The position numbers and the translations under genes are program-made. 64,000 bases of DNA, taken from Candidatus Bathyarchaeota archaeon. GTDB lineage: Archaea; Thermoproteota; Bathyarchaeia; Bathyarchaeales; Bathycorpusculaceae. Location of the stretch: contig CAWHXY010000004.1 in NCBI GenBank assembly GCA_963833575.1, positions 704,001 to 768,000 of the forward strand, written 5' to 3'. Below the pieces are notes generated by a model, which saw only the letters and a list, made by a program, of their open reading frames with translations, searched no databases and was not told the origin of the DNA. Below, one piece after another: positions 40,823 to 60,090 of this stretch (its first letter is position 1; each line of letters starts with the position of its first letter).

Positions 40823-41038
40823 ATTATAGAAATAGCCATCAAATGCAAACGCGCTTAAGCGTTGGTGTTGACTGGCGTTAATTCGTTTTTAATAAGAAAA
40901 CAATCAGGTGAATAAACATTCTTTTGATTCAAGTAAGTAATTACCTATTTTGCAAGTTTTCTTTCATTGCGGTTATTCTTGCATGTATTGACAGCCTTAA
41001 CTTGCTATTTTTTCATACAAATTCGTTTTGTAAAATAA

Positions 41039-41158
41039 GGGTTTGCTGAGGCTCCGGAAAAAATCTTTTCTTTTAGGAGAAAAAGAAAAAATGCAAATTT
41101 CTTTTTTCACGATCCTATGTCACGCATCGTGAATTTTAACCCGAGCCCACTCAGCCCC
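41039..41158. repeat. ~120-bp structured element, copy A
   Basis: GGGTTTGCTGAGGCTC...GAGCCCACTCAGCCCC with inner TTCACGAT-N12-ATCGTGAA; differs from copy D at 2 positions. Confidence 0.95.
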
Positions 41159-41300
41159 AATTTACTACTAAAATAGTTAGAAACTAAAAGGGGAAATGAG
41201 TTTTTTTCAGCATTCTAATGGTCGTTACTGTAGCAAATTTCATGGTATTCTTTCCCCTTTTTCTCTTTTGCAAGGTTAGCGATATCTCTTTATAAGATTT
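41159..41300 (-). pseudogene. Internally deleted remnant of a beta-propeller surface-protein gene
   Basis: TATA-like TTATAAAG, purine-rich RBS and ATG AAA TTT GCT ACA G joined directly to AACGACCAT and a 3' trailer matching that of the 56252 gene. Confidence 0.6.
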
Positions 41301-41413
41301 TGCAAAGACTTGCCCTATTTAGCTATTTCATTAATCAGATAAAGCAAAACAATTAAAATAAGAGCAATTTATCACGGATCATTTTATTAACTCAAAAGTG
41401 TAAGCTTCTGGGT

Positions 41414-42118
41414 ATGGCACTCCACAAAAAGGGTCAGACTCAGAGAAAAGAAAATAATTCAATAACAAATAAACAGCAGAGAGTCTGCGAGCGGGTAATC
41501 TCTAATTTCTTAATGATGAGTGCATCAACTTTAGAAGTGCCAGTGCAAAAAGACCAGCTTACTATTGCAGCAGCACAATTTACTGAAGCTCGTGACAGCT
41601 TAAATGCGCACATAAGAATCTCTATAAAAGAAAAAAGTATAGTTTTGGAAAAAGATAACGCGCAAACAACAGTTGATAGCAAGAATGGGAAACATTCACG
41701 AAGCACAAAAACAGTCTCAAAAGAAAAGAAAACGGTTGCCAAACCCAAAATACTAAAAGAAAAGAGCAAAAAAGAAGCTACGATTCAACTCTCAGAGGCA
41801 CCTTCACAAAGTCAGTGTGAAGAAATCATAACTAAATTCTTAGCAACAAAAAGTACAGAAACGCGAACAGCAATAATTCAGCAATTTACTGCTGCAGGAA
41901 TACCGATTGCAAACACAAACACCCAAACACAAACCAATAAAAACTGCATCGTACAAAGCGTAGAACTACATTTTAGCGAAGACAGCAAAAGGTCAGCCGT
42001 ACTTGAATTCATTAAAGCACGAGACAATATGAATGCGCAGATAAAAGTTCGCTTCTCCAAGCAAGGAGTAATCTTAATCAAAGTTGAAAACTCAACAAAA
42101 ACAGTGAAAGAAAACTGA
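41414..42118 (+). CDS. Hypothetical protein with an internally duplicated ~35-aa motif
   Basis: AAQFTEARDSLNAHIRI..IVLEKDN and AVLEFIKARDNMNAQIKV..VILIKVEN; true start possibly the MMSAS codon. Confidence 0.7.
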   Translation: MALHKKGQTQRKENNSITNKQQRVCERVISNFLMMSASTLEVPVQKDQLTIAAAQFTEARDSLNAHIRISIKEKSIVLEKDNAQTTVDSKNGKHSRSTKTVSKEKKTVAKPKILKEKSKKEATIQLSEAPSQSQCEEIITKFLATKSTETRTAIIQQFTAAGIPIANTNTQTQTNKNCIVQSVELHFSEDSKRSAVLEFIKARDNMNAQIKVRFSKQGVILIKVENSTKTVKEN

Positions 42119-42241
42119 CTTTAACAACATACAGTGGATTAACTAAATTTTTAAGTTTCTTGTAACACAACTTACTCTTTGAATAATAGAAGAGTAATCA
42201 TAAACTTGATATGCAGGTAATTAGTTTCTTAAACAGTTAAG

Positions 42242-42363
42242 GGGTTTGCTGAGGCTCCGGAAAAAAAATTTTTTCTTTTAGGAGAAAAAGAAAAATGCAA
42301 ATTTCTTTCTTCACGATCCTATGTCACGTATCGTGAATTTTTAACCCGAGCCCACTCAGCCCC
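42242..42363. repeat. ~120-bp structured element, copy B
   Basis: Same element, 70 bp past the stop of the 42434 gene; a few substitutions and homopolymer indels. Confidence 0.95.
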
Positions 42364-42433
42364 AATTTTTGCTTAAACTGTTTTTAAAGACTAAAAAAAG
42401 AAAAGGGAAAGTTGTTTCCATTTTTGCTTCACT

Positions 42434-45073
42434 TTATTGTCGTTTTCTGAGCAGTAGCATCGCGAGAACAGCGCCGATAATGATTATGATAATTATCGTT
42501 GCTATTCCTAAGCTCATGATGTATGACTGGGTTGATGCCAAGCTTATCGGTGTAGCTGTTGGTGCTGCTGTTGCTGCGGTGGTTGCGGTGAGATGTGTTT
42601 CAGAGTATGATGGATAGTACCCGTTTGTGCCTGCGAAAGTAGCATAAATTGTGTAGCTGCCTGGAATTGTGGGTGCCCATGTTAAGCTGTAGCTGCCGCT
42701 TGCGTCGGTTGTTGCGCTTCCGATGGCATAGTGGTTGCCGTTAGAGTCTAAGACTGCGAGCTGCACTGGAACTCCTGTGAAGTTTGTTGGTTCAGGTTGT
42801 TGTTGGTAAACATAGCCCATCCATTCACGCATGCTAGCGTCAGATGATACTGGAACTCCGTTTGGAAAATTACCAGCTACCTGTGTTTGCTTTGAGCCTG
42901 CGGCGATGTCTGTTACTGTGCCTTGTATGACTACGTTGGTTCCTGTATTCACGGTTGTAAGTGGTGCTTGGACTGTGGTTTGACTTGGGCCTCTGCCTAC
43001 AACGTAGATTTGGTTGTCATAGCCGTTGAACCACGTGTTGTAGCCGTCTGCCATAGCGTAGCTGAAGACCAAGAATTCACCCGTGTATCCTGAGATTGTC
43101 CAGATTTCTGCTCCGGTTGTAGCGTTGATTGCGCGGTGCAATCCTCCTTTGAATAGTGGTGATTCAGGTGTGTGTTCTGTTGTAACGAGGTAGACTACTC
43201 CGCTGCCGATAGCGTTAACGAATGTTGGATAGTGAGCGAAAGGTGTTTCTAGTCCTGAATTTGTGCTGTTGCCTTCGCCGCCGTTACCGTATGTCCATAG
43301 AAGAGTGCCAGTCTTTGTATCATAGCAGTAGACTATTCCAGCGTAAGCGCTGACGTACATGTTGCCATAACCGAATCCGTTAGCTAAACTGCCTGATGCT
43401 GGGCTGCCATAGTAGTCAAGGTATGCTTGAGCTGCAGTTGGACCCCAAAGCTTTGCACCTGTATCCAAGCTATATCCTACGTACTGCGAAGTTTCCCTAT
43501 AGTTTTCGGTGAAGACGCGGTTTACTGGGTCAATCCCTGCTGCTAGGACAGTGATATTTCCTGCTGGTGGGTTAAGGGTTTCATGCCATATTATCGAACC
43601 GAGACTGCCGCTGCTTTGGGCAATGTTGATTGTGAAGTATGTGTATGGAGTCCAGCTTGCTGTCCCCATGAAGGTAGTGCCTATTGATGGTAGAGAGCCA
43701 GTGTAACCAAGCAGTATATCATTGGTTGCTCCGAGTTCAGTTACAGGGGCTGCAGTGTTCAGGTATGGTATGGAAACGTTAAAGTCGAACATTCTTGGAT
43801 CTGCTCCGTTAGTGATAGGTGGAATGACAGCAGGTGATGTTGATGCACCATTGTATTGACCAGTCCACAGTCGGGATGAGTTCCATTCTTGCAGATAGTA
43901 TTTTGGAGCGGTTGGAGTGCCAAGGTTGTTCAAGGTTAGTATTATGTGTTCACCGTTTGGACCGAGTATAGTTGTGCCTGAAGGAACGTTAGATACGTTG
44001 AACATTGGGTCGCCTGTGTAAGCATCAAAAGCTTGCCAAGATGACGTGAAAAGAATTGGTGGGTAAACTCCGTGTTGGTTAGAGTCTTGGACATCATAAA
44101 TGTAGGCGAATGACAGTGCAGGTACGTCGGTTCGAGACCAAATGAGTTGTCCTGTTTGCAAATTCACGCAGTCAGTTGGTCCGGTGCTGGCGCCGTTGAA
44201 TGATATTGGTTCAGTGTAGTACAAATATCCGTCAACAATTATTGGATTTTGGTATCTTTGATTGTACGCGGACCCCTCGAAGTATGAGTCTGCCACGATT
44301 GCAGTTTGGTTTCCTCCAACAATACCGCCCATTTGCAGGGGCTTGGTCCACATAACGTGGCTGGTAAGAGAGCCTACTAGGTCTCCTGCTCCGGCATATT
44401 GTTCACCGTTTCCTCCCATGTTAAAAGTATTAGCAAAGCCATAGTATCCTGGCGCACCGGTACCTAGCCAGTTTGATGAAATTGAGTACCAGTTGGTGTT
44501 ATATTGGTATATTGGTCGTGTCCAGTAGTTTGTTGGAAGAGGAGCTAATGGGTAATTGGAAATTGGTGAATTTTGAACGTTGAGAGTTGTCGAAGCACTG
44601 CTGGCTAAATAAGTGTCATTAGTGTATGCGCTTGGTCCAAAAGAGAAGGTGATAAATGACATAACGGGCTCAGTCCATGTGTATACCATTCCTGGGAAAC
44701 TGAAGGTAAGAGTGTACGTGCCAGTTTGGGTAGGCGTGAAGAAATAGTCCTGTGCTGATGTTGAATCCTGTACAATAGGCCAAGTTTGTGTTGTATTTGT
44801 ACCGTCAGGCGCAGTAATGATGAGTTTGTAGTTCTGGAATCGAATATCATTAGCTATTACTGCTCCATCTGGAACCAAGTTAAGCCACATGATAACTTCC
44901 ACTGATTGACCTGTGCCGACTGGGTTTGGTGAAGCATTAATGTAAGCGTAAGTTGGAATCTGCCAAGCAGGTGTGTGTGCGCTGGTAGATGGTAATAGCA
45001 TGACTGATGCCATCATTGAGATTGTTAAGAAGATAGCGATCGCAATAGATTTGGTTTTTAAATTTCTAGACAT
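42434..45073 (-). CDS. Secreted, C-terminally anchored PQQ-like beta-propeller surface protein (intact paralog)
   Basis: Signal peptide MSRNLKTK..SAHTP; repeats ending TG(Q/A/T)x(I/L)W; Ig-like C-terminal region; Thr/Ala linker, TM and RKRQ tail; AGGAG RBS before ATG at 45073. Confidence 0.88.
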   Translation of the reverse strand: MSRNLKTKSIAIAIFLTISMMASVMLLPSTSAHTPAWQIPTYAYINASPNPVGTGQSVEVIMWLNLVPDGAVIANDIRFQNYKLIITAPDGTNTTQTWPIVQDSTSAQDYFFTPTQTGTYTLTFSFPGMVYTWTEPVMSFITFSFGPSAYTNDTYLASSASTTLNVQNSPISNYPLAPLPTNYWTRPIYQYNTNWYSISSNWLGTGAPGYYGFANTFNMGGNGEQYAGAGDLVGSLTSHVMWTKPLQMGGIVGGNQTAIVADSYFEGSAYNQRYQNPIIVDGYLYYTEPISFNGASTGPTDCVNLQTGQLIWSRTDVPALSFAYIYDVQDSNQHGVYPPILFTSSWQAFDAYTGDPMFNVSNVPSGTTILGPNGEHIILTLNNLGTPTAPKYYLQEWNSSRLWTGQYNGASTSPAVIPPITNGADPRMFDFNVSIPYLNTAAPVTELGATNDILLGYTGSLPSIGTTFMGTASWTPYTYFTINIAQSSGSLGSIIWHETLNPPAGNITVLAAGIDPVNRVFTENYRETSQYVGYSLDTGAKLWGPTAAQAYLDYYGSPASGSLANGFGYGNMYVSAYAGIVYCYDTKTGTLLWTYGNGGEGNSTNSGLETPFAHYPTFVNAIGSGVVYLVTTEHTPESPLFKGGLHRAINATTGAEIWTISGYTGEFLVFSYAMADGYNTWFNGYDNQIYVVGRGPSQTTVQAPLTTVNTGTNVVIQGTVTDIAAGSKQTQVAGNFPNGVPVSSDASMREWMGYVYQQQPEPTNFTGVPVQLAVLDSNGNHYAIGSATTDASGSYSLTWAPTIPGSYTIYATFAGTNGYYPSYSETHLTATTAATAAPTATPISLASTQSYIMSLGIATIIIIIIIGAVLAMLLLRKRQ

Positions 45074-45252
45074 TTTTTTGTTTTCTCCTTTTTTCGATGC
45101 AAAGAGATTCAGGGTGTACATATTTAAAACTTTATAAAAACTTAGAATTTCCTCAAAAAGAATGCAAATCTAATAGTTAAAATGCATTTTTATAAGTTAT
45201 TGTAAAAAAACCATAACAAAAATCCGTAACACCAATTATGTGACAATACACG

Positions 45253-46296
45253 ATGAATTTAAATATAATGAAAAAGTACCATGAACTCAAACGAGGGATA
45301 ATAGTCCTAAACGAACCTGTTAGCGCAGTTCAGGCAAAAATTCTCAAAGAGTTGCTAGCAGATGGCCGCAAAACTGAAAACGAAATAGCCAAAAAAATCA
45401 GCCAAAAAAAAGAAGATGTTAAAAAGAATTTTGCTAAAATGCAAGAAAATGGAATAATCACGGGTGCAACAATACACATTAACTACAAAAAATTTGGCTA
45501 TAAGGCTGTTGCTCACATTCTAATCAATGTTGATCCGAAACAAGAAGATCAGCTAATTGAATGCCTGAAAAAAATGCCAGAGATCTATTCCTTCTATAGC
45601 AGAGGGATCAAAGGAAACATAGACGTTGTTACAACCCTCAAAACTCTTGAACAATTAAACGAAATTAAGGACAATATCAAAAGAGATTTTTCAATTTTAG
45701 AAATGAAAACCGCAATCTGGACAGACGTAAAAGAAATGAACGAAAACTTGGCAATAATTCCAGAGAATAGGAAAAACAAAATTCAAACAGATTATCTTCA
45801 AAGCAAGTCGCAAATAACCAGTAATTCTCAGAATATCGTTTTGGATAAGATCGACCAGAAAATTGCGGATAAATTGTCCGAGAATGGCCGATTGTCAATG
45901 GAGATCTTGGGCAAAGAATTAGATATTGCCCCTGAAATGGCCAAGAGAAGATATGAAAAACTCAAGAAGAATGGCCTCCTAAAGGTGACAATTCAAGTTA
46001 ACCCTACCAAAATAGGATACCAAGCCTTATGCGTCTTTTTCATCACAACTTCGAACGAAAACACATTTTTAATCATTAACAGAATCGGCAGAATACATGA
46101 CATAATAAGCATAATGAAAACGACAGGGGACTATGATCTTCAAATATACGCAATGATACAGGATCTCGATCAATTACTTTCTATTCGAGAAGAACTAGGC
46201 AAAATTCCTGGTATAATGAGAATGGACACAGAAATATTGCGGTTAGACAGATTGCAGAAATGGCCAAGCCCACGCCAGTACACATCAACTTTTTGA
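45253..46296 (+). CDS. Tandem double-unit Lrp/AsnC regulator
   Basis: Two wHTH+RAM units (KILKELLADGR; LDKIDQKI..NPTKIGY..TTGDYDL); ends WPSPRQYTSTF; start uncertain. Confidence 0.88.
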   Translation: MNLNIMKKYHELKRGIIVLNEPVSAVQAKILKELLADGRKTENEIAKKISQKKEDVKKNFAKMQENGIITGATIHINYKKFGYKAVAHILINVDPKQEDQLIECLKKMPEIYSFYSRGIKGNIDVVTTLKTLEQLNEIKDNIKRDFSILEMKTAIWTDVKEMNENLAIIPENRKNKIQTDYLQSKSQITSNSQNIVLDKIDQKIADKLSENGRLSMEILGKELDIAPEMAKRRYEKLKKNGLLKVTIQVNPTKIGYQALCVFFITTSNENTFLIINRIGRIHDIISIMKTTGDYDLQIYAMIQDLDQLLSIREELGKIPGIMRMDTEILRLDRLQKWPSPRQYTSTF

Positions 46297-46420
46297 TTAA
46301 ATCAACCAAAATAGCTAAGAATTTTGAAAAATAGTAATTTCATCTGAAAAAACAAGTAAAACAATAAGAAATCTTAAATTTCATGAATTATCAAAAGTTA
46401 GACAAAAGGGTAAAATTCGC

Positions 46421-47404
46421 GTGCATAAAATCAACGAACTTGATTCACAAATACTAAAAAAACTACTACAAGACGGGCGACGGGGCTATAACGAAATAGC
46501 TGAAGAACACAGAATTTCAGAAAACAAAGTTTGGAAGCGCTGCAGAGCAATGGAGCAAAAAGGCATAATTACTGGAGCAAGCGTTCAGATGAATTTTGGT
46601 CATTTTGGATTCGATGCACTTGTAACTTTGTTAATAAGTGTTGAAGCACAACAAATAGAAAAAGCTATGGAAACCATAAGTCAAGTAACTGACGTAAGAG
46701 CTTATCGGCAGTATAACAGCGTTTATAATATTCGAGCAGTAGCAACTCTCAAGGACCTAAACGAGTTAGATCATTTTAAGCAATTAATCAAACGAAAACT
46801 TCCCACGTTAGGTTTAAAATCTTATATTTGGACAGGGGTCAGAAATATTCCTGAAAACTTAAACCTGACCAATTCTTCCAATGCTTATGACGAAAACATT
46901 GAGCGAAATCAAAGCAACACAATCTCTATGCAAAATGAAGGATACCTAATTGATGAGTTGGACAAACTAATAGTTAACAAACTCACATCAGACGGGGAAA
47001 TGTCTTTTACCCGAATTGCCCAAGAAATGAAATTGTCAACGGACACAGTTTTGAAAAGATACTATAAGCTTAGAAAAAGCGGATCAATAAAAGTTTCAAT
47101 CCAAATTAATCCAAACAAAATTGGTTATAAATCGATCTTGGATTTTAATGTGGCTTTTACAACGCCCGGTAATTTCTCAGATGCGGTGATTGAATCATTG
47201 GCAAGAATACCAGACGTAATCATCATCACAAAAACTAGCGGCGACTTCGATTTGCAAGTGACAGCCATGATAAGAGATATTCCGCAATCTTTCACTATTC
47301 AAGATCAGATATCGAGAATTTACGGAATCACGAAAATTGAAACTAGCGCTAGAAAAATCCCCGACAAATGGCCGACGCCACAACAGTATATATCAACATT
47401 CTAA
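46421..47404 (+). CDS. Tandem double-unit Lrp/AsnC regulator
   Basis: Same architecture; ends WPTPQQYISTF. Confidence 0.88.
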   Translation: MHKINELDSQILKKLLQDGRRGYNEIAEEHRISENKVWKRCRAMEQKGIITGASVQMNFGHFGFDALVTLLISVEAQQIEKAMETISQVTDVRAYRQYNSVYNIRAVATLKDLNELDHFKQLIKRKLPTLGLKSYIWTGVRNIPENLNLTNSSNAYDENIERNQSNTISMQNEGYLIDELDKLIVNKLTSDGEMSFTRIAQEMKLSTDTVLKRYYKLRKSGSIKVSIQINPNKIGYKSILDFNVAFTTPGNFSDAVIESLARIPDVIIITKTSGDFDLQVTAMIRDIPQSFTIQDQISRIYGITKIETSARKIPDKWPTPQQYISTF

Positions 47405-47549
47405 ATAAGCATTTTTTCCAAAATAATTACTTTATTTACAGAGACAAATCATTTTGCTCCTAGGTTGTTGAGAAAATATTTTACCTTTTTTAGAAGCCCA
47501 TTAAGAATATTCTCGAAATAAAGCCACATAAAAATCTTAAGCGTAGTAG

Positions 47550-47655
47550 TGGTTTGCTTAGGCTCTTGAGTTGTTCCTTAGGAGAAAACGAGCAAAGGCA
47601 AATGTTCTATCATGATTGCAAACTATTATGATTAAGTCAAAGCCAACTGAGCCTC
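47550..47655. repeat. Diverged copy C of the structured element
   Basis: GGTTTGCTTAGGCTC..TTAGGAGAAAA..GCAAATGTTCT..TCATGAT-N8-ATTATGA..AGCCAACTGAGCCTCAATT is colinear with copies A/B/D and shows compensatory changes. Confidence 0.75.
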
Positions 47656-47936
47656 AATTCGTCCCTATTATGCGTTTAAGAACTGAAAAAAAGCGAAATA
47701 TTGGTTCTTGTTTAGAGTCAATACTCGGAAAATTTTTTCAGAATAATAGTAAAGAAACTAACCAGGGCCTACTTTTTAAGCAGACGTGTTTCCAATAATT
47801 GGGAACATCAAAAAAGAGAAATCGCAAGTTCATCGGGCATTATTATTAATTAAGATTTTTTTAGTCCAGTCGGTAAATTTGGGCAAGCGGCTGAGAAGCT
47901 TATTATTTAAGAATAGAATTAAATTCCGTGAGCTAA

Positions 47937-48413
47937 ATGGATGGTATCGTAGAAATAGATGATACTGATGAAAAGATTTTACATATATTGATCGAAGATG
48001 CGCATACAAGTTTAAAGGATATTGCGAAGGAATGCAATGTATCGTCCGTGTCTGTTTTAAATAGAATTAAGCGTTTGAAAAACCTTGGAGTGATTACGGG
48101 GGCAACACTCTTCACTGACCTTAGCTTAGTAGGGTTTCACATCGTTGCTACAATTGGAATGGAAACAGACTCAAATTCAGATGAAATCATTAGCTACTTC
48201 AAGCAAAATACATACTTGATCGAGCCAGCGACAAGTGTTGGTGAATATGACTTATGCGCTCTAATCTACGCCGAAAACATTTCGAACTTAAATGAAAAAA
48301 CTGAAGCAGTTAGAAAGCGATTTGGTATAAGAAAAGTAATAGTTAATGTTTGGTCAGGTATACCGCACATCACTTTTGAGAATATTGATCTGAACCCATT
48401 AAAAAAAGGTTGA
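47937..48413 (+). CDS. Lrp/AsnC regulator (N-half type)
   Basis: IDDTDEKIL..SLKDIAKECNVS..RIKRL..GVITGATL; ends VWSG..ENI like the N-halves of the tandem proteins. Confidence 0.88.
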   Translation: MDGIVEIDDTDEKILHILIEDAHTSLKDIAKECNVSSVSVLNRIKRLKNLGVITGATLFTDLSLVGFHIVATIGMETDSNSDEIISYFKQNTYLIEPATSVGEYDLCALIYAENISNLNEKTEAVRKRFGIRKVIVNVWSGIPHITFENIDLNPLKKG

Positions 48414-48416
48414 ATC

Positions 48417-48899
48417 ATGGATAAGATAGATTACCTAATATTTAGTGAACTGTTGAAAGACGCTTCTCTTTCATATGTTAAGATTTCACATAAATTAGGC
48501 ATCTCATCGTACACAGTCAGGAGACACTATGAAAAAATGAAAAAAGAAGGAGCAATCCAAAAATGCATCGTGTCTATTGACCTTTCAAAATTAGGCTATC
48601 AGGGAAAAGCATTATTATTAATCACTGTAGCTCCGAACAGCAATAAATCTGACACATTAGCTTACCTTAAGAAAATTAGAAATATTATGGTTATTACAGA
48701 AATAATTGGACCGTATGATATTATTGCAATTGCCCCCATTACGGACCTAAAAAATATTCAAACACTGGTTAAAGAGGTAAGAGAGGCCCCTTGTTTGCAA
48801 AGAGTTGAAATAGCATGTATAGATGACACGCATTTCCCAATAGGACCGAATTTTAACACTATACTTAGTCAAAGATGTTGCGCACTAGCAACAAAATGA
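48417..48899 (+). CDS. Lrp/AsnC regulator (C-half type)
   Basis: MDKIDYLI..TVRRHYEKMKKEG..KLGYQ..GPYDI; starts 3 nt after the previous stop. Confidence 0.88.
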   Translation: MDKIDYLIFSELLKDASLSYVKISHKLGISSYTVRRHYEKMKKEGAIQKCIVSIDLSKLGYQGKALLLITVAPNSNKSDTLAYLKKIRNIMVITEIIGPYDIIAIAPITDLKNIQTLVKEVREAPCLQRVEIACIDDTHFPIGPNFNTILSQRCCALATK

Positions 48900-49192
48900 G
48901 GCAAACTTGATATAGCAGTCAAAAGAAAAAACAAAAAACAATTTCTCTGGATTACGTCAGGTCTTTGATAAATATTCTTAGAGTTTGCTAAGAGAAAAAA
49001 ACGCAATTCTTGAAGGTAAGTATCTAAAAGTTGGGAAAAGATCCGGAAAATTTTGCAGGATAGGTTATTCCTCTTCGAAAAGCAGCTAAAATATGTTAGA
49101 GCGTACCATATTTTTAACTCAGTTTTCCTAACTTAATACTTTTAAATCAAAATGAGTCTCAAGCTGTGTATTTAGGTTAATTTTATATCTAA

Positions 49193-49417
49193 ATGAAGAA
49201 TAGTCTATTTATGAGTGGATTTAGCGAAATGGAGAAGATTGCTGAAGGCATCAGTGACTTTGGTGATTTTAGAGCGATTTTGTTCAAAACGTCAGATGGT
49301 CGTCATTTTGTGCGGTTTCTGCCCTTTGAGAACTCGGAAAAACCTCACACGCAGTGGCTTCCTGGTGATGACTATTTGGAATGGCTCAGATGTTGTGATA
49401 AATGTTCTGCAACGTGA
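49193..49417 (+). CDS. Small hypothetical protein
   Basis: Protein-like 74-aa ORF behind a TTTTATAT box; start may be a later Met; C-terminal CCDKC. Confidence 0.45.
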   Translation: MKNSLFMSGFSEMEKIAEGISDFGDFRAILFKTSDGRHFVRFLPFENSEKPHTQWLPGDDYLEWLRCCDKCSAT

Positions 49418-49487
49418 ATTACTCTAATCCAGGGTTAAGTGAGGATATGTAAGAAAGAGTTGTGGACATAACCCCTTTTGCGGATGT

Positions 49488-51341: not shown

Positions 51342-52655
51342 TTACTTTGCTCCCTTCAACGCCATTGAAACAATCTTGGTCATATGAGTTTCTGGTCCGA
51401 AAACTTCAATTGGCACACCTATTTTTTCGCCAAGCGCTCTCATCTGACACAAGCCCTCCAGATAGTTGGGTCCGCCCCTTCGGACGTATATCTTGACCTT
51501 ATTCTCTTGGAGATTCTTTTGGTGTTCTTTAAGGGCTTTGATTATGCCTTTGAAGGTACTTGCGACATCAGTAAAGTTTGCTATGCCACCACCTATTATC
51601 AGGAATTTGCCTTTCGGGTTTACCTTTCTGGTCATGAGGTCTAGTATTGTATTGGCGTAGAGATAGGTGAACTCCTCGCTTGGGTCACCTGAATATTCCC
51701 CGTAATTAGCCAGTTCGGTTATGTAGCCTAGATCAGTAATCGTATCAGCATAGATGACAGAGGCACCACCGCCTGCAACCATGGTCCATACTCTTCCTTC
51801 CGGATTGAGGATGGTTAGTTTCAATGAGGCCCCAGTTTTTGAGTCTAAGTCTTCGATGTAAGCTTCTTCTTCAGTCGGAGTTCTCCCAAAAGGAACCGGA
51901 AACTCTATTTTGCCCCACTTCTCGCCGCTCTCAAATTCGGCACAGCTGTCCAGCTTGGATGCCAAATCTAGTGGGATAACCGAATCCTCTGTTACTACAA
52001 TCGGGTTCATTTCCAAATAGGTGAAGTTTAGATCAGCATAAAATTTGAATAATGCTTCTGTGAATCCTGAAAGGCACTTACTGTGGGTAGCTGCAACTTT
52101 TTCTAGTAGTTTTTTCTCGATTTCTGCAATGCTTGGAAACTTGCCGATGGGCACCTCCAAACGCAATGCTTTAGCGTCAACGTCCCCGACGTCTACACCG
52201 CCTTCAGGGTAGAACAGGATAGTATCTCCATCTCTAGTCGACATTATAGCGAGGTAATATTCATCCTGATTTTTGTGCGGTACCAGTGGCTCGATAATAA
52301 AATGTGTCAGTTGACCAATTGTCCCCTTGTCCGCGGGATTTCCGTTGGCATCAAATTTACCGTAGATAGTTATCGGTCCTTTTGACTTCTCTTCTATCCA
52401 TGCTTTGGCTTGGTTGTAGTTTGCGCCTGCAAGAATTAGGTTATTCTTTCCTCTACGCTTTATCAATTGGTCGGGTTTTACAACCAACTTCTCTGTTGTT
52501 AGCCACTTATTTTCATTCAGCAGCTTTGTCATATCGGTTTGTGGTCCAACCGTGACAATCTTATCAGAAATATTGTACTCTCCGTGTGAGTAATCTTTCA
52601 AGAGACGGGCTAGCATGCGCTTACCGTCTGCTTCTCTGATTGCTTTATGCGCCAT
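51342..52655 (-). CDS. aclB: ATP-citrate lyase ATP-grasp / citrate-binding subunit
   Basis: LVVKPDQLIKRRGK, GRVWTMVAGGGASVIYAD, ELANYGEYSG, IGGGIANFT, VRRGGPNY. Confidence 0.96.
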   Translation of the reverse strand: MAHKAIREADGKRMLARLLKDYSHGEYNISDKIVTVGPQTDMTKLLNENKWLTTEKLVVKPDQLIKRRGKNNLILAGANYNQAKAWIEEKSKGPITIYGKFDANGNPADKGTIGQLTHFIIEPLVPHKNQDEYYLAIMSTRDGDTILFYPEGGVDVGDVDAKALRLEVPIGKFPSIAEIEKKLLEKVAATHSKCLSGFTEALFKFYADLNFTYLEMNPIVVTEDSVIPLDLASKLDSCAEFESGEKWGKIEFPVPFGRTPTEEEAYIEDLDSKTGASLKLTILNPEGRVWTMVAGGGASVIYADTITDLGYITELANYGEYSGDPSEEFTYLYANTILDLMTRKVNPKGKFLIIGGGIANFTDVASTFKGIIKALKEHQKNLQENKVKIYVRRGGPNYLEGLCQMRALGEKIGVPIEVFGPETHMTKIVSMALKGAK

Positions 52656-52667
52656 TATATTCTCCCA

Positions 52668-53891
52668 CTATTCAAGCTTCTGTTTGAGCCTTTTGGCAAC
52701 CTCAGCAATAAACTCCTCGGTGTAAACTTGTCTATTGTTTGGGTCCGACGTTGCAACAATCATCAAGTCACCGGTCATAATACCGCTTTCAACAGTCTCA
52801 AGAGCCGCATCCTCCAACTTTTTCGCGAAATCCACAACTTCCGGCGTCTTATCCAACTCACCTCTCTTTCGCAAGCAGCCAGTCCAAGCAAATATTAAAG
52901 CCATGGAGTTACTTGAGGTCTTTTCACCTTTCAAGTATTTGTAATAGTGTTTCTGAACCGTGCCATGAGAAGCTTCGAACTCATAAAATCCTTGAGGGCT
53001 AACAAGCACAGAAGTCATCATTGCCAAACTACCATAAGCTGAGCCCAACATATCGCTCATAACATCGCCATCATAGTTTTTGCAAGCCCAAAGCATACCG
53101 CCTTCCGTCTTCATTATTCGTGCAACAGCATCATCAATTAAAGTAAAGAAATACTCGAGTCCTGCTTCTTTGAATTTGGATTTCCAGTTTTTCTGGTATT
53201 CTTCTTCGAATATCTTACGAAAATCCGCATCATATGTCTTAGAAATTGTATCCTTAGCGCCAAACCAAACATGAAGTTTCTGGTCATATGCATAGGTGAA
53301 GCAGGCTTTGGCAAAGCTGGAAATTGATTTATCAGTATTATGAATGCCTTGAATGACTCCTGGACCTTTGAAATCTTGAATTGTTCCTCGCCAAAGTTCC
53401 TTGCCCGCAGCGTTTGTGAATACCATCTCGGCCTTTCCTTCTTCTGGAACCCTGTACTCACAGTTCTTGTAAACATCTCCATAGGCGTGTCTTCCTATGT
53501 GGATTGGTTTCTTCCAAGATCTAACTGCCGGAGGAATATTTTTCACAAGGATCGGTGCCCTGAAAACCGTGCCATCTAAAGCTGCTCTAATGGTGCCGTT
53601 TGGGCTACTCCATTCCTTCTTCAAATTATATTCTTTAACGCGGTCTTTGTTTGGAGTGATAGTGGCGCATTTTACTCCGACACCGTATTTCTTTATGGCG
53701 TCTGCTGCTTCTAAGGTTATTTTGTCGTCAGTTTCGTCTCTCTTTTTGAGTTGAAGGTCATAATATGCCGTGTTCATGTCGAGAAAGGGTAAAAGGAGCT
53801 GATCTTTAACCATCTTCCACATTATTCTCGTCATTTCGTCTCCGTCTATTTCGACGATCGGTGTCTTCACATTTATTTTGCTCAATCTCAT
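52668..53891 (-). CDS. icd: Isocitrate dehydrogenase, NADP-dependent type-II-like
   Basis: [48 protein letters not shown]. Confidence 0.95.
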
Positions 53892-53902
53892 TCCTCAATC
53901 AT

Positions 53903-55834
53903 TTATTTTACTGTATAGGAGAGCAGTCCGCCCTCATAGAGAATGTCTTTTTGTCTCTGGGAAAGGTTGTAGGTAAGCTCTATTTGGAGATTCTTGGTCT
54001 TGTTTACAAGGATGACTGGTTCATTATTCTGCAGTTTCTTCTTGATGCCTGGAATTTCAATCTCATCTCCTTGAGCTATTTTGTCGTAGTCAGCCATATT
54101 CTTGAAGGATAGCGAGATTATTCCGAAGTTAACAAGGTTGGCTGCATGGATTCGCTCTACCGACTTGGCTATGATCGCTTTGACGCCTAAGTACATTGGG
54201 CACAATGCAGCGTGCTCTCTAGAACTTCCTTGACCATATGATTCGCCAGCAACTATTACGATGTGCAATCCTTTCTTTTTTGCTTCCATTGCTCTCTTGG
54301 GGAATGCTGGGTCAATCGGCTCGAAAACAAATTCTGAATATTTGGGCACGTTGGATCTGTATTTTAGCCTTGCTCCAGCCGGCATTATATGGTCTGTAGT
54401 AATTTTGTCTCCGACTTTTATTCCGACAATGCCCTTTATTTGCTCGGGCATTTTGTCGTTTACTGGTGGAGTGCCTATGTTTGGTCCCCTAGCGATTTCA
54501 ATGTTTTTGTCAGATTCTTTGGGGAATATGAACATTGAATCATCAATTAGAAATTTCGTTGGCATGTTAACATTTGGGTATTCGAAGCCTGCATTTCTTG
54601 GATCAGTAAGTTTACCTGTGATTGCAGCTATAGCTGCGACTTCAGGGCTTACGAGGTAGACCTGAGCGTCTGAGGTTCCGCTTCTTCCTTCGAAGTTTCT
54701 GTTGCTTGTTCTGAGCGATACGCCGGTAGTCTTGGGACTTTGGCTGTTGCCGATACAGAATCCGCATGCTGCCTCTAGAAGCCTGGCGCCAGAATCTAGT
54801 AGGTCAAGGATGTAACCGTCTCTTGTCGCCATCTGCAGAACTTGTCTCGAGCCGGGTGCAACTCCAAATGATACGTCAGGATGGACTTTTTTACCCTTTA
54901 TTATCTTTGCTACTGTGGCTATTTCTTTGTAGGAGGAATTTGTGCAGGAACCGACCATTATTTGATCCACTTTAACATCTTTCAGTTCGCTTACTTTGAC
55001 AATGTTGCCTGGGCTGTGAGGTGCTGCAGCAAGTGGTTCAAGCGTACTAAGATCAAGATCGATTACTTTGTCGTACTCAGCGTCGTCGTCAGCCTTTAGC
55101 TCAATCCAATCTGCTTCTCGACCCTGTGCTTTAAGAAACCTCTTTGTCTCCTCATCTGAGGGAAATATAGAAGTGGTAACACCCATTTCGGCGCCCATGT
55201 TTGTGATTGTTGCTCTTTCTGGAACCGTAAGGTTCTGCACTCCAGGTCCAGTGTACTCTATTATGACACCGACATTGCCTTTTACTGTGAATATGTCCAG
55301 CATCTTCAAGACAACGTCTTTGGCGCTGACCCAGGGCTGAAGACTTCCCCTTAGATTTATCTTGTAAACTTTTGGGCATGTTATGTAGAATTCTCCGCCG
55401 CCCATTGCAACAGCTACATCCAGACCTCCTGCTCCAATAGCTACCATACCGATGCCTCCGCCGGTGGTCGTGTGACTGTCAGATCCAAGGAGCGTCTTTC
55501 CAGGCTTACCAAATCTCTCCAGATGGACTTGATGGCATATTCCGTTACCTGCCTTTGAATAAATTACGCCATATTTGGCCGCTACTGTCTGAAGGTACTT
55601 ATGATCATCAGCGTTTTCGTAACCCACTTGGATGGTGTTGTGGTCAACATAGCTAACAGAAAGCTCTGTTTTCACCTGTTTGAGTCCCATTGCTTCAAAC
55701 TGCAGGTATGCCATGGTTCCTGTGGCGTCCTGAGTGAGAGTTTGATCAATCTTTATGCCTATCTCGTTTCCAGGTATGTATTCTCCGACCACCAGATGTT
55801 TTTCTATTATTTTTCGAGTAAGGGACTTTCCCAT
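53903..55834 (-). CDS. acn: Aconitate hydratase
   Basis: TQDATGT, DHN, GICHQ, GSDSHT, GSCTN, ACGFCIG, SNRNFEGR, TTDHIMP, YGQGSSREHA. Confidence 0.93.
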   Translation of the reverse strand: MGKSLTRKIIEKHLVVGEYIPGNEIGIKIDQTLTQDATGTMAYLQFEAMGLKQVKTELSVSYVDHNTIQVGYENADDHKYLQTVAAKYGVIYSKAGNGICHQVHLERFGKPGKTLLGSDSHTTTGGGIGMVAIGAGGLDVAVAMGGGEFYITCPKVYKINLRGSLQPWVSAKDVVLKMLDIFTVKGNVGVIIEYTGPGVQNLTVPERATITNMGAEMGVTTSIFPSDEETKRFLKAQGREADWIELKADDDAEYDKVIDLDLSTLEPLAAAPHSPGNIVKVSELKDVKVDQIMVGSCTNSSYKEIATVAKIIKGKKVHPDVSFGVAPGSRQVLQMATRDGYILDLLDSGARLLEAACGFCIGNSQSPKTTGVSLRTSNRNFEGRSGTSDAQVYLVSPEVAAIAAITGKLTDPRNAGFEYPNVNMPTKFLIDDSMFIFPKESDKNIEIARGPNIGTPPVNDKMPEQIKGIVGIKVGDKITTDHIMPAGARLKYRSNVPKYSEFVFEPIDPAFPKRAMEAKKKGLHIVIVAGESYGQGSSREHAALCPMYLGVKAIIAKSVERIHAANLVNFGIISLSFKNMADYDKIAQGDEIEIPGIKKKLQNNEPVILVNKTKNLQIELTYNLSQRQKDILYEGGLLSYTVK

Positions 55835-55875
55835 AAATGTCTCATCCTATGGAAAGACTTGTTTTTCTTATGTGC

Positions 55876-55905
55876 ATATAAAGGTTGTCAATTTATGCGA
55901 CAACC
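55876..55905 (-). promoter_or_regulatory. TATA box and palindromic operator candidate for the acn-icd-aclBA operon
   Basis: TTTATAT on the minus strand (55876-55882) abutting GGTTGTC-N9-GACAACC (55883-55905). Confidence 0.5.
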
Positions 55906-56068
55906 AGCAATCTATGTTTACGTAAACAGTCTTAATTTAGAATAGTGTCTAAACAACAATACAAAAAGAAACTAAATTTCAAACCAAACTATTTTTGACT
56001 TCGCCCACTTAAGAATATAGTAGCGATCATGATAAAACGCTGCTAGGATGATCGATCTTTGAGCAGTA

Positions 56069-56188
56069 GGGTTTGCTGAGGCTCTGGCAAAAATCTTTTC
56101 TTTTAGGAGAAAAAGAAAAAATGCAAATTTCTTTTTTCACGATCCTATGTCACGCATCGTGAATTTTAACCCGAGCCCACTCAGCCCC
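56069..56188. repeat. ~120-bp structured element, copy D
   Basis: 118 of 120 positions match copy A by eye; 63 bp past the stop of the 56252 gene. Confidence 0.95.
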
Positions 56189-56251
56189 AATTTGCTCCTA
56201 AAATAGTTTGAGACTAAAAAAGGGGAAATGCTAGTTTAGTTTAGCATTTTT

Positions 56252-58905
56252 TTATGGTCGTTTCCTAAGCATTAGTACCATTACGACAGCTAAGACAATA
56301 ATGATTAAGACGAATAGTCCAGCGATTGCGGGAACAAAGTATGCGTCAGCGACAGATGTTGGAGTTGCCGTAGGTGCAGTTGTAGCTTGAGGTGCTGATT
56401 GTACTACAAGGTTGGTTTCTGCGTTTGATTGATAGTAGCCATTGGTTCCGGCGAATATAGCGTAGACTGAGTAGCCTCCTGGGACATTTGGAATAGTCCA
56501 AACGTAATGGAATAAGCCGTTTGCATCAGTTGTGGCGCTGCCGATTGTTATGTAGTTCCCATTAGGGTCATATGCCGTTATGCTTACTTGAACACCTGTG
56601 AAATTGGTTGGCATTGCTTGTTGCTGGTATACGTAGCCCATCCATTCTCTCATGCTTGCATCAGAAGAGACTGGAACGCCGTTTGGAAAATTAGCTGCAA
56701 CCTGTGTTTGCTTTGTGCCAGCAGAAACGTCTGTTACCGTGCCTTGTATTACAACCTTTTCGCCTGCTGTAATTTGGGTCATTGGCGCCTGTACTGTGGT
56801 AGCGCTTGGTCCTCTGCCAACACTATAGACTTGGTTGTCATAGCCGTTGAAGAATGTTGCATAGCCGTCTGCCATGGCAAAACTCATCGCTGCGAACTCA
56901 CCAGTATAATCTGAGAGAGTCCAGATTTCAGCGCCAGTTGTTGCGTTAATAGCGCGTGCCAATGCACCTTTGAAAATGGGTGTTTCGACAGTGTGCTCAG
57001 TTGTAATTAAGTATACTACTCCGTTGCCAATAGCTTGTATGAAGGTGGGATATTCGCCGAAAGCAGTTTCAAGGCCTGCATAAGTGCTGTTGCCTTCGCC
57101 GCCGTTACCATATGTCCACAGTAGAGTTCCATGTGCAATGTCATAAGCGTAGCATATTCCTCCGAATCCACTGCTGTAGAGAATACCGTTAGCAGCTATG
57201 CCATTAACGTTGGGGGTAGCTGGGTTGCCATAGTAGTCAAAAGCTGTTTGACCTGCGGTTGGACCCCAAAGTTTAGCGCCTGTTGCCATGCTGTATCCTA
57301 CCCACTGCATAGTTTCTGCATATGCTTCAGTGAAGACGCCAGTTTTTGCGTCTGCCGGACCTGGTAAGACAGTGACGTTGCCTGCGGGTGCATTAAGTGT
57401 GTTTGTCCATGATGGAGTGATAGTTGTGGTAGTCTTGCTAATTCCATTGAGACTTATACCGAGGTATGTGTATGGGGTGCTGCTTACTGTTCGGAATATG
57501 AGTGTTGACGAGGAGGGCAACGTGCCAACTTCCACAATCAGCATGTTGTTGTAGAAAGCATCTTCAATTGTAGGTGTTCCGGAGAGTGTGTTGAGCGCTG
57601 GTACTGAAACGTTGAAGTCATATAAGCTCTTAGTAGCTCCGTTAGTTGTTACCGGAATTATTGGTGGCGATGTTGACGAGCCCGAGTAGTCAGGTTCCCA
57701 AAGTTTTGATGAGTTCCATTCCTGCAAATAATATTGTGTAGGACCTGCGGGAACCGCAACTGGGCCATAGATTGTGTTTATTGTCGTCGTTGGCCCACAG
57801 TTTACAATGGATAATATTAGGTGTTCACCGTTTGGACCTAGTATAGTTGTGCCTGATGGAACGTTGGTTATGTTGAACATTGGGTCTCCTGTGTATGCAT
57901 CAAAAGCACGCCATGAGCTTGTGAACAGTATTGGCGGGTAAACTCCGTGTTGGTTGGGGTCTTGAACGTCATAAATGTAGCCGAAGGACAGGGCAGGTAC
58001 GTCAGTGCGAGACCAAATAGTTTTTCCTGTTTGCAGGTCTACGGCAACTGTTGGTCCATTGCTAGGTCCTGAGAATGATACTGGTTGTGTGTAGAAGAGC
58101 ATTCCATCAAGAATTATTGGATTGGTAAATCTTTGCTGATAGGCTGAACCTTCAAAGTATGTGTCTCCTGCAATGGCAAAGTTGTTTCCTCCTACGACTC
58201 CTCCGCCTTGAATTGGTGTTGTCCACATTACGTGGCTAGTAAGTGGTCCCACAGCGTCACCTGGAAAACTTGATTGGGCTGATCCCCCAAAAGAGTAACC
58301 AGAGTAGCCTGGTGCACCTGAGCCTAGCCAGTTTGAAGAAATTGTGTACCAGTTACTGTTTGTGCCGTAAATTGGGCGTGTCCAATAACTTGTTGGTAGA
58401 GGAGTAGTTGGGTAATTGGATATTGCTTGCTGCTGAACAGTTAGTGTTGTAGAGGCAGTGCTAGGCAAATAAGTATCATTAACCAATGCTGAGGTTGGAC
58501 TATCGTTGTTTACAGTTACTAATTGTCCTGGGAATGTAAAGTTGAAACTGTATGTGCCTATTTGGCTAGGAGTAAATGGATAGTCCTGTGCTGATGTTGG
58601 ATCTGTTACGGTCGCAAAATTCTCATGTGTTATTGTACCGTCAGGTGCAGTAATGGTGAGTTGGTAGTTTAGGAATCTGTAATTGTTTGACAAGGCACTT
58701 GATAAGTCATATGTGTCGTCAAGCCACATGATTACGTAGGCTTTTTGGCCGACACCTACAGGGTTAGGTGCTGCATTTATGAAAGCAAAAGTTGGAATGT
58801 TCCATGCTGGTGTGTGTGTGCATTAACGTTTGGTACTAACATAATTGAAGTAGCAATTGAAAGAGTTAATAATATCGCGATAGCTATTGTTTTAAGGTTT
58901 TTCAT
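56252..58905 (-). pseudogene. Beta-propeller surface-protein paralog, frameshifted (+2) in a (CA)5 tract (phase-OFF or pseudogene)
   Basis: ATG at 58905 gives signal peptide MKNLKTIAIA..NAHT then a stop at 58777; removing one CA restores AHTPAWNIPTFAFINAAPNPVGVGQ..MWLDD and joins the 825-aa ORF, homologous to 42434-45073. Confidence 0.85.
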
Positions 58906-59112
58906 ATTTTTTCTTCCTATATTTCTGTGAGAGTCTCATTAGCAACCAAGGTGTATTTAGATTTTTCGTGTTTTAGAAAAAAAGCCCTAAAAAAGGAGAA
59001 AATATACGACATAAAAGTATACTTTCAAGATTATTTGCTACCACTAATGCTTAGTTTATATTTTCTTGATTTTGAGAATACTTAATTAGGCAGTTTAAAA
59101 AGAAAAGGACTA

Positions 59113-60090
59113 ATGAGAACAGAGATTGACGCAATAAACGCCAAAATTCTAAGGGAGTTACTCAAAGATGGACGCAAGAGTTTCGCAGAAATTGCGAAGG
59201 AGAGCAATACTTCAAAAGATGTTATCGCAAAACGTTACAGACAAATGAAAGATAAAGGAATCATAGTTGGGGCTACGATACAGAATAGCCCTGCTTGTTA
59301 TGGGGGTAACTTTGTTGCGGGTTTCTACGTCTTCACTCAACCAAACAAGGCGGAGTTTGTACTGCAACTAGCCAAAAAAATACCTCAAGCAATTGACGTT
59401 TTTCGTTTGAGTATTAACCCAAGTTTGGCAGTCATGGCAATTATGAAAAGCATAAGTGAATTGGACCAGATCAAACAAGTAATAAAGACTATGCCTTATG
59501 TTGTGGATGTAGATACAAGACTGTATACAGAAATAAAAAATAATCCAGACAATTTATCGATATTAATGGAAGAGAGCGGCAAAAAAAATGATAACGAAAT
59601 TGTGAAAAAGAAAACGCTGAAAATAGTTGATATTAAAATTGACAAAATTGACTCTCAAATAATTGAAAAACTTGCAACAAACTCTCGTTCGCCCTTTAAA
59701 CAAATCGCTTTAGAGCTGAAGGTCTCAACTGACACAGTTATAAGAAGGTATGAAAGACTAAAGAAAAATGGAGAAATTAGAGCGATAATACAGATAAACC
59801 CCACAAAAATAGGCTATTATGCGTTCGCTGTTTTCAATTTGTCCTTCATTTCCCAAGATAATTGGCCTGAAAAGATGGAGGCTCTTGCCAAGATTCCAGA
59901 TATCAATTTCATATTTAAGACAACTGGCCAATTTGACTATCTAGCAAGTTTATGGGTAAAAGACATCAATCAATTAGTGGACGTCAAAGAAGAAATTGCC
60001 AGCATGCCGGGCCTATCAAAAATGGAAATAGCTGTAGAAAGAGCACTTAGTGTTTGGCCAATTCCCAGAGAAGTTATATCAACATTTTAG
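59113..60090 (+). CDS. Tandem double-unit Lrp/AsnC regulator
   Basis: Same architecture as 45253 and 46421; ends WPIPREVISTF; divergent from the beta-propeller gene. Confidence 0.88.
   Translation: MRTEIDAINAKILRELLKDGRKSFAEIAKESNTSKDVIAKRYRQMKDKGIIVGATIQNSPACYGGNFVAGFYVFTQPNKAEFVLQLAKKIPQAIDVFRLSINPSLAVMAIMKSISELDQIKQVIKTMPYVVDVDTRLYTEIKNNPDNLSILMEESGKKNDNEIVKKKTLKIVDIKIDKIDSQIIEKLATNSRSPFKQIALELKVSTDTVIRRYERLKKNGEIRAIIQINPTKIGYYAFAVFNLSFISQDNWPEKMEALAKIPDINFIFKTTGQFDYLASLWVKDINQLVDVKEEIASMPGLSKMEIAVERALSVWPIPREVISTF

Follow-up and report, generated by a model that had tools for sequence, protein, structure and literature searches.

We describe four neighbouring gene slots, lying between positions 41,038 and 60,090 of a 64,000-nucleotide (nt) stretch of the genome of a Candidatus Bathyarchaeota archaeon (GenBank assembly GCA_963833575.1, contig CAWHXY010000004.1, positions 704,001 to 768,000; hereafter the window), each of which keeps a conserved structured element of about 120 nt at its 3' end. 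The four slots are probably local members of a unit that occurs throughout the genome and the genus, and their different states would reflect the ordinary birth and death of an expanded paralog family rather than programmed switching. In order, the unit would comprise an optional divergent regulator of the Lrp/AsnC or TrmB type, a gene with its own promoter and ribosome-binding site (RBS) that encodes a secreted, C-terminally anchored 'PQQ-like' beta-propeller/immunoglobulin (Ig) protein of about 900 amino acids (aa), a T-run and the element. Of the four units in the window, one is intact, one carries a frameshift and two are relics of deletions (Table 1). More tentatively, and judging from sequence comparison, the element would be under selection and could act as a gene-sense RNA that pairs in trans with the RBS and start codon of paralogous mRNAs, which we regard as possible though short of probable. 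To the two layers of this explanation taken jointly we assign a probability of roughly 0.4.

Read in the sense of the gene that precedes it, the element opens with an A-rich lead followed by GGGGCUGAG, a bulge of 2-3 nt, GGCUCUGG and a hairpin of variable sequence with the consensus UCACGAU...AUCGUGA. Past this hairpin come a short stem with the loop UUUGCAUU and then CUUUUCUCCUAAA, which in some copies lies within the loop of an extra hairpin, and the 3' part consists of CCAGAGCC, UCAGC, an AAA bulge and CCC; a T5-T6 run also lies inside the element in this sense. Because RNAalifold returned only 9 pairs on a MAFFT alignment, the structure was set by hand and then tested. Among 28 copies from this genome, 90.0% of the stem cells are paired and 14 pairs have changed on both sides, and the corresponding values for 53 copies from other species are 87.8% and 17 pairs, in an alignment that was fitted to the sense model and leans towards it. 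None of 500 shuffles reached the observed values in the covariation test, and controls in which the pairing was slid gave 31-52% pairing. The arms and the CUCC core are almost invariant across species whose proteins are 33-77% identical, and copies are kept at matching positions, as for slot C in the relatives L085 and L087, which together argue that the element may be maintained by selection and not by recent spread alone. Each 19-nt arm occurred 3 times in a pattern search against 0 expected by chance. In the window the four copies share one orientation, copies A, B and D are 92-96% identical, and the repeat finder placed the copies at 64-96% identity. Scanning positions 38000-62000 with Rfam 15, the tRNA alone passed, and in a sensitive scan the best score of element B was 22.5 bits against a threshold of 60.

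The genes that carry the element belong to one large family. Gene B, the intact gene of the window, lies in an open reading frame (ORF) spanning 42434-45121, with its likeliest start at the ATG at 45073, which is preceded by a Shine-Dalgarno (SD) motif. It matches PQQ_2 (PF13360, BamB-like) with 33 bits against a cut-off of 27.6, its Ig-like matches fall under the cut-off, and it has no match in NCBIfam or, in a sequence search at E up to 1, in the PDB. With gene B as the query, BLASTP found 30 paralogs of 842-1074 aa and one 93-aa fragment in the genome, a metagenome-type assembly of 2.75 Mb in 8 contigs (labelled C4, C7 and so on; the window is C4:704001-768000). One extra ORF of 918 aa is only about 20% identical to gene B but has the 3' tail in common with the others, which brings the family set to 31 genes; 30 of these have open full-length frames (842-1074 codons). 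The 5' regions inspected have their own RBS, start and signal peptide. At the other end, the listed genes share by eye their final codons (..RKRP, AGAAAACGACCATAA) and a pyrimidine/T-run 20-45 nt past the stop and ahead of the element, with a stop-proximal pattern of AGAAAACGACCATAA plus TTTCC..TTTTTTAG.

The expansion of this protein family is already published. The main text of PMC11697101 (ISME Commun 2024) reports that secreted 'PQQ-domain' proteins (PF13360) occur in tens of copies in Bathy-6 genomes, with a mean of 24 in one clade and 46 PQQ-domain genes in the closed genome, and with Sec signal peptides, Ig-like domains, recent within-genome duplication and several members detected in proteomes; a redox role on lignin is proposed there, and the reading as PQQ-dependent dehydrogenases is presented as a hypothesis. 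The family of the window agrees in lineage, copy number, signal peptide, PF13360 and Ig-like domains, and as far as that text goes we take the proteins to be the same, with the qualification that here the BamB-like PF13360 match is the sole one. The words 'repeat' and 'Lrp' are absent from the main text of PMC11697101, which thus offers no description of the 3' element, of regulators paired with the genes or of decayed slots. Since no Rfam family covers the element, the literature searched contained nothing relevant and that main text is silent, we treat both the element and its pairing with regulators as undescribed within the reach of the search.

We then consider how tightly element and gene family are linked. 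An iterated nhmmer search found 29 copies of the element on four contigs, and the covariance model found 27. The element lies 51-64 nt past the stop codon, behind the T-run, in 18 of the 31 family genes, the other 13 having no element. Across 80 gene-centred loci from other species it is on the strand of the gene in 53 of 53 matches and, by our tally, directly after the gene in 43 loci; conversely, when 25 loci from relatives were centred on the element, a family C-terminus stood just upstream, in the same orientation, in 18 of them. Forty related genomes were scored, 24 from the same genus and 16 others: the family is present in 24/24 and 1/16, the element in 20/24 and in that single outlier, and with the queries used neither was found in the remaining 15 genomes. 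The related loci come from peat, bog and soil Bathyarchaeia, including 'Bathy6' isolates. The original prediction had asked for such a search with the element, and its outcome is twofold: the link to the gene family is confirmed, and the local character of the system is not, with the copies spread over the genome and the genus.

Other features of the copies are those of a non-autonomous mobile or conversion-prone palindrome, similar to MITEs (miniature inverted-repeat transposable elements), repetitive extragenic palindromes (REP) or enterobacterial repetitive intergenic consensus sequences (ERIC), which would spread among the 3' flanks of the family at the DNA level and owe its conservation to spread and homogenisation. 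The 19-nt arms are imperfectly complementary and can be read as terminal inverted repeats of the MITE kind. Eleven of the 29 copies are solo, partial or second tandem copies, some of them away from any trace of a gene. Element similarity and protein similarity are uncoupled (Mantel r=0.02), with no co-phylogeny, and the four most similar element pairs are all neighbours. At C4:206420-213635 two neighbouring genes encode proteins that are 23% identical and carry elements that are 90% identical, which suggests local copying or conversion of the element alone. At C4:949038-949449 two tandem copies, 64% identical to each other, stand 300 nt apart behind one family gene. The folding energy, moreover, has no strand preference. 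We nevertheless consider spread as DNA unlikely to be the explanation. The flanks of 25 copies inspected hold no consistent target-site duplication; the arms lie at no end of an insertion sequence (IS), and their matches outside the elements (up to 4 mismatches; 15 for one arm and 2 for the other) are isolated, with no pair around a transposase. TnpB gave no match, and the single Y1 transposase of the genome is broken and has unrelated flanks. The fixed spacing behind a single gene family and the constant strand also speak against it, as do copies at matching positions across species, which keep their arms while the hairpin varies with compensatory changes. Near and far copies are alike overall (0.733 vs 0.715), so that homogenisation by genomic distance is not significant. 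Part of the apparent retention of the element is an ascertainment effect, because the copies were found by searching with the element and deletions that removed it are invisible.

Within the window, the original prediction had read four copies of one module in a single orientation beside a tRNA-Ser gene, each in a different state, and our analysis bears this description out, with three near-identical copies and a diverged C copy next to a tRNA that is identified by Rfam and assigned to serine by eye. Slot A had been taken for an internally deleted gene with a divergent hypothetical gene, and a two-part alignment to paralogs supports it: read in gene sense from 41340 to 41161, the first part corresponds to the 5' region of the paralog C7_597251 (-66..+13; 82.5% identity over 80 nt), and the sequence then jumps to the end of slot D, where it covers the last ~10 nt of the coding sequence and the flank beyond (78.9% identity over 71 nt). 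On this alignment slot A is an internal deletion that left a predicted promoter, about 5 codons, the stop, the T-run and the element; the 234-aa ORF at its side has no match in Pfam or NCBIfam. A solo element at C7:64056-64187 has an upstream flank that by eye resembles the promoter region of the slot A relic (window 41161-41340); a promoter of the family apparently adjoins the element with hardly anything between, and a TATA-like box stands ~31 nt upstream.

The remaining three slots also correspond to what had been proposed. Slot B holds an intact gene, with an open ORF, signal peptide, PQQ_2 match and transmembrane (TM) anchor, next to two tandem-Lrp genes that match Lrp/AsnC models in Pfam. 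Slot C keeps its split Lrp pair and has lost its gene, of which a degenerate 3' tail and a T-run remain. In L085 the same slot is filled by a 151-aa C-terminus that is 53% identical to residues 748-894 of gene B and ends 67 nt before the element; in L087 it is empty, and the next gene there is 93% identical to the 158-aa Lrp-type protein of the window. The filled and empty versions that had been looked for therefore exist, between species, and the element stands at the matching position in both relatives. From these alignments slot C is best read as the relic of a near-total deletion, the same slot being occupied in another species. In run X3, a DNA contig from a related peat strain connects window position 47403 to 49150 across unknown letters, and element C and the split Lrp pair may be missing from it or replaced; we do not rely on it. 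Slot D, with one tandem-Lrp gene, is broken by a +2 shift in a (CA)5 run directly after the AHT(P) site of the signal peptide, past which the remainder is one open frame of 825 codons; gene B carries (CA)4 at the corresponding AHTP site. Gene D has its closest ortholog in L129 (71.5% identity), where the frame is open over 885 aa, the CA run is absent and a divergent 324-aa ORF is retained. Since the genome is a metagenome-type assembly in 8 contigs, the frameshift of slot D may be an assembly error.

From these states the original prediction had drawn a repertoire of surface proteins that slippage, deletion or recombination among the common 3' elements would vary. All local slots but one are indeed inactive, the frameshift lies within a dinucleotide run, one species has slot C filled and two have it empty, and elements A, B and D are 92-96% identical. 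These observations can be set against several others. A CA run of at least 4 units occurs at the signal-peptide site in 4 of the 31 genes and is absent from the L129 ortholog, so the run is not conserved as a phase-variable tract would be. The deletion in slot A is internal and not bounded by the element, and neither there nor at the solo copy of C7:64056 do the deletion ends coincide with the element borders. No matching IS end, target duplication or recombinase adjacent to the element was found; consistent with the observation that no recombinase is encoded in the window, all 5 tyrosine-recombinase matches of the genome and both parts of the Y1 transposase lie outside it. Nor are there silent cassettes, since promoters and starts, and in many cases regulators, belong to the individual paralogs; genome-wide all family genes except one are open. 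Programmed variation is thus highly improbable, and the ordinary turnover of a paralog family remains our preferred account of the four slots.

Regulator genes are a recurrent, though not universal, part of the unit. The three tandem genes of the window (325-347 aa) pass the Pfam cut-offs of HTH_AsnC-type, HTH_24 and AsnC_trans_reg and so belong to the Lrp/AsnC family; the split pair passes the helix-turn-helix models, with AsnC_trans_reg under the cut-off in the 160-aa protein and absent from the 158-aa one. Siroheme decarboxylases AhbA/AhbB (NirDL-like) were tried as an alternative identity and rejected, with 24-45 bits against NCBIfam equivalog cut-offs of 125-140; for the divergent genes the NCBIfam models of Lrp/AsnC regulators outscore AhbA/B, all of these scores being under the curated cut-offs. 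Genome-wide, a divergent regulator lies within ~540 nt of 13 of the 31 family genes, 7 of the Lrp type and 6 of the TrmB type, and 18 genes have neither. The claim that each gene has its own Lrp control is consequently too narrow: it holds for the 7 genes with an Lrp-type regulator and fails for the 6 with a TrmB-type one and for the 18. Seen from the regulators the association is stricter, as all 7 tandem-Lrp genes of the genome sit 132-1300 nt from the 5' end of a family gene. The solo element of C4:413361-414485 has ~190 nt away a TrmB-like gene, which is apparently split into two overlapping ORFs (178 and 144 aa), and the locus looks like a further unit without its propeller gene.

What sets the element apart is its core, which is the reverse complement of the translation start of the family that it accompanies. 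On the opposite strand the core reads UUUAGGAGAAAAAGAAAAAAUGCAAAU, that is, the RBS, spacer, start codon and second codon of the family: what the element exposes is the RBS and start of the family (AGGAGAAAA...ATGCAAAT) in inverted form. The exposed motifs UUUGCAU and CUUUUCUCCU together make up the reverse complement of the family initiation region (AGGAGAAAAG..AAAAUGCAAAU), and one paralog start matches the element core at 25 of 25 nt. The pattern GGAGAA-N4-14-ATGCAA occurs 36 times in the genome, 17 times in elements, 7 times at family starts and 12 times elsewhere (3 of these 12 open long ORFs). Predicted duplexes between family starts and element cores average -18.0 to -19.2 kcal/mol, compared to averages of -12.5 to -15.0 for 284 SD-bearing control starts. 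When folded in gene sense, 61 of 68 copies leave CUCC mostly without a partner, and 43 of 57 do so for UGCAU. The best match of the core is a subfamily of 'MQ-start' genes that mostly lack the element themselves: ATGCAA starts are found in 1/18 genes with the element against 6/13 without it in this genome, and in 3/25 against 8/26 in other species.

From the fixed strand and distance, the conserved and exposed anti-SD and anti-start motifs and the lack of matching in cis, we propose that an RNA of the element would be made in gene sense, either by read-through as a 3' untranslated region (UTR) or as a small RNA that originates from the 3' end. In such an RNA, the long two-bulged outer stem and the variable hairpin would hold out UUUGCAU and CUUUUCUCCU, which could bind paralog mRNAs in trans at the RBS and start, so that these mRNAs would be translated less. 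A bolder version, which we would bet against at long odds, makes the element the hub of an RNA circuit for paralog choice, in which 3'-end RNAs from the expressed genes would use their exposed anti-SD and anti-start loops to silence the translation of other members among ~30 proteins, above all of the element-less 'MQ-start' subfamily, on top of the Lrp/TrmB-type sensors. The choice of the protein to be made would then be in part post-transcriptional, through an anti-RBS network that spans the family and is encoded by it, in an archaeal lineage without cultured members.

Several results weigh against the proposed trans-acting RNA. For 3 of 4 representative elements, 13-27% of the control starts equal the family median of the duplex energy, and the contrast in ATGCAA starts rests on related genes that are not independent. 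The element shows no excess of pairing with the start of its own gene (own -15.0, other -15.8 kcal/mol, p=0.95); as it does not covary with that start, pairing in cis is not supported. A T-run that is likely a terminator stands between stop and element and a T5-T6 run lies inside the element, so many gene-sense transcripts may end before or within the element. The strand signal is weak, with 25:13 G-U vs A-C cells in this genome and 74:56 in the 53-copy alignment fitted to the sense model, and the folding energy gives none (sense more stable by 1.4 kcal/mol, shuffled by 1.15). The solo and partial copies, some with no gene trace, and the uncoupling of element from protein similarity count on the same side. 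In the contigs of an RNA library from a related peat strain, which cover gene B over 42442-45079, none was seen to run from the gene into the element, with coverage beginning at 42442; a DNA contig of another sample does continue from gene B into element-like sequence. These data come from public runs, 5 of 7 of which contain part of the stretch, with word shares of at most 0.30, all as contigs that show neither RNA ends nor strand. Uncovered parts, joints at the A/D repeat and peat runs of low share were left out of the evidence on habitat, absence and heterogeneity.

A rival reading gives the element a passive role, in which it would add another terminator, stop exonucleases or insulate closely packed units from each other, and the RBS-like core would be the evolutionary relic of an inverted 5' end that pairs with nothing. 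In archaea successive T-runs can yield alternative 3' UTR isoforms, and the fixed place behind the stop, the orientation that is always that of the gene, the strong outer stem with its T-rich runs and the lack of covariation with the gene's own start are all as expected for such a structure. A relic should decay, yet CUUUUCUCCU and UUUGCAU are among the best conserved and most exposed parts of the element across species; moreover, there is already a T-run ahead of the element, and this run is all that the 13 element-less paralogs have. We find a purely passive structure an unlikely reading, with perhaps a minor share of the probability.

A further rival reading turns to the opposite strand (the + strand of the window), from which a small RNA or mini-mRNA could be made, with a working AGGAG...AUG RBS serving as a decoy or to start a very short ORF, or an antisense transcript running into the 3' end of the gene. 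In this orientation the SD motif and AUG are conserved with the family's own spacing, no internal T-run interrupts the element, and the purine-rich flank of the gene sense becomes a T-rich tract directly past the outer stem. We also read in the outer stem a bulge-helix-bulge (BHB) topology on this strand, in which each bulge lies 5' of the central helix. The central helix of the consensus is, however, 5-6 bp long and the canonical BHB has 4 bp, no conserved promoter-like box was seen upstream on this strand, and G-U slightly exceeds A-C, which favours the gene sense. A small ORF in the element on the + strand was tried as a coding gene and rejected: its frames, sequence and lengths (1-25 codons) are not conserved. 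Transcription from this strand is accordingly rather improbable in our judgement, and the gene-sense RNA pairing in trans is the function that we put forward for the element.

Table 1. Features of the slot array and its tRNA border, with positions counted in the window
Feature	Position	Strand	Evidence and remarks
tRNA	40701..40819	+	Rfam RF00005, 47.7 bits; intron-bearing; borders the array
Element copy A	41038..41160	- (= family-gene sense; transcribed strand unproven)	Repeat finder, nhmmer, covariance model 124.8 bits
Slot A relic	41161..41300	-	TATA-like box ~41288-41296, RBS, ATG 41243, ~5 codons fused to the last codons, stop 41184-41186, then T-run
Divergent 234-aa ORF beside slot A	41414..42118	+	No match to the propeller family
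Element copy B	42242..42365	-	Repeat finder, nhmmer, covariance model 115.9 bits
Gene B 3' spacer	42366..42433	-	Pyrimidine/T-run, likely archaeal terminator, ahead of the element
Gene B, intact secreted propeller	42434..45073	-	Signal peptide, PQQ_2 propeller, Ig-like region, C-terminal TM anchor
Tandem Lrp/AsnC-type gene, 347 aa, divergent from gene B	45253..46296	+	HTH_AsnC-type and AsnC_trans_reg pass the Pfam cut-offs
Second tandem Lrp/AsnC-type gene, 327 aa	46421..47404	+	Pfam, NCBIfam
Element copy C	~47550..47657	-	Diverged; arms, hairpin and CUCC core kept; nhmmer E=1.7e-18; covariance model 74.4 bits
Slot C relic	47658..47780	-	Degenerate remnant of the last codons of a family gene and T-run; gene lost; alignment to the filled L085 slot
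Split Lrp/AsnC pair, 158 and 160 aa	47937..48899	+	Pfam, NCBIfam; L087 ortholog 93% identical
Element copy D	56068..56190	-	Repeat finder, nhmmer, covariance model 124.2 bits
Gene D	56252..58905	-	Broken by +2 frameshift, one extra CA unit, in (CA)5 run 58811-58820
Tandem Lrp/AsnC-type gene, 325 aa, divergent from gene D	59113..60090	+	Pfam; 324-aa divergent ORF in the same place in L129

The array begins close to the tRNA, whose end lies 220 nt before the first element copy. By eye, from the long variable arm and a CGA anticodon, this tRNA is of type II and Ser-like; it was not called by ARAGORN, presumably because of an intron. Between slots C and D the genes for ATP-citrate lyase (two subunits), isocitrate dehydrogenase and aconitase stand in a row (49488-55834, - strand), a reductive or oxidative tricarboxylic acid (TCA) block that breaks up the slot array with core metabolism. 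Between rpl3 and the tRNA, at 40385-40510, two adjoining and very stable GA-rich hairpins (GAAGAAGGAGGAC... and GAAGAAGAAAC...) fold with a minimum free energy of -48.4 kcal/mol (z -4.7 on the + strand and -5.7 on the - strand); they reach the threshold of no Rfam family and overlap with a weak ORF of 89 aa. Downstream of the array, a 697-aa radical SAM/SPASM protein (60760-62853, + strand) adjoins a tandem Lrp/AsnC-like gene. Its C-terminal half resembles NirJ2 and the heme b synthase AhbD (378 and 365 bits, both under the cut-off of 500) and, more weakly, PqqE. The main text of PMC11697101 mentions for Bathy-6 a 'possible PQQ synthase', a protein of the same general kind. The protein in the window also has an N-terminal extension of ~340 aa.

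Bathyarchaeia of the Bathy-6 group are abundant in peat and soil. No gene family of theirs is more expanded than that of the secreted propeller proteins, for which an action on lignin or humic matter has been proposed, and the present analysis adds that many of the paralogs come as units with their own regulator of a type that senses small molecules and that more than half of them carry a conserved structured 3' element holding the reverse complement of the family's ribosome-binding start. The remaining interest lies in these two features, an undescribed conserved 3' element built around that reverse complement and paralogs with Lrp/TrmB-type regulators of their own. Should the element prove to be an RNA regulator, it would be a rare archaeal case of cross-talk encoded at the 3' ends within a gene family and would give a direct readout of paralog use in metatranscriptomes; if it is a repeat only, it would still be a useful marker of family turnover. 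The covariance model of the element can be used to annotate it in other genomes.

The element has partial counterparts among known systems. Like the attC sites of integrons, it closes each gene unit on the 3' side with an imperfect inverted repeat in which some bases are unpaired; unlike in attC, the arm sequences are conserved and not just the structure, and by eye there is no GTTRRRY-type core. Its units also differ from integron cassettes in that they have their own RBS, starts and promoters, often a regulator, and are scattered around the genome with no adjacent integrase, the 5 tyrosine-recombinase matches (PF00589) of the genome being neither in the window nor beside element clusters. 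With ERIC, REP and bacterial interspersed mosaic elements (BIME), Correia elements and MITEs it shares a length of ~120 nt, multiple copies, terminal inverted repeats, an intergenic place after genes and the capacity to fold in transcripts, and it differs from them in its restriction to one gene family, its fixed distance and strand, the lack of a target duplication and of a parent IS, and its retention across species with compensatory changes. On the + strand, the outer stem has three helices, the middle one short, set apart by one 3-nt bulge on either strand, and this layout recalls the archaeal BHB, in which the central helix has exactly 4 bp. There is also a likeness to bacterial anti-SD 3' UTRs and C-rich-loop small RNAs such as the icaR 3' UTR, RNAIII and RsaE of Staphylococcus, which likewise expose, in a loop or single strand downstream of a coding sequence, a pyrimidine-rich CUCC-type motif that is able to pair with an RBS. 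The icaR 3' UTR acts on its own mRNA. The element described here does not covary with the start of its own gene; its complement extends over the start and second codon, and it is common to many paralogs of an archaeal family.

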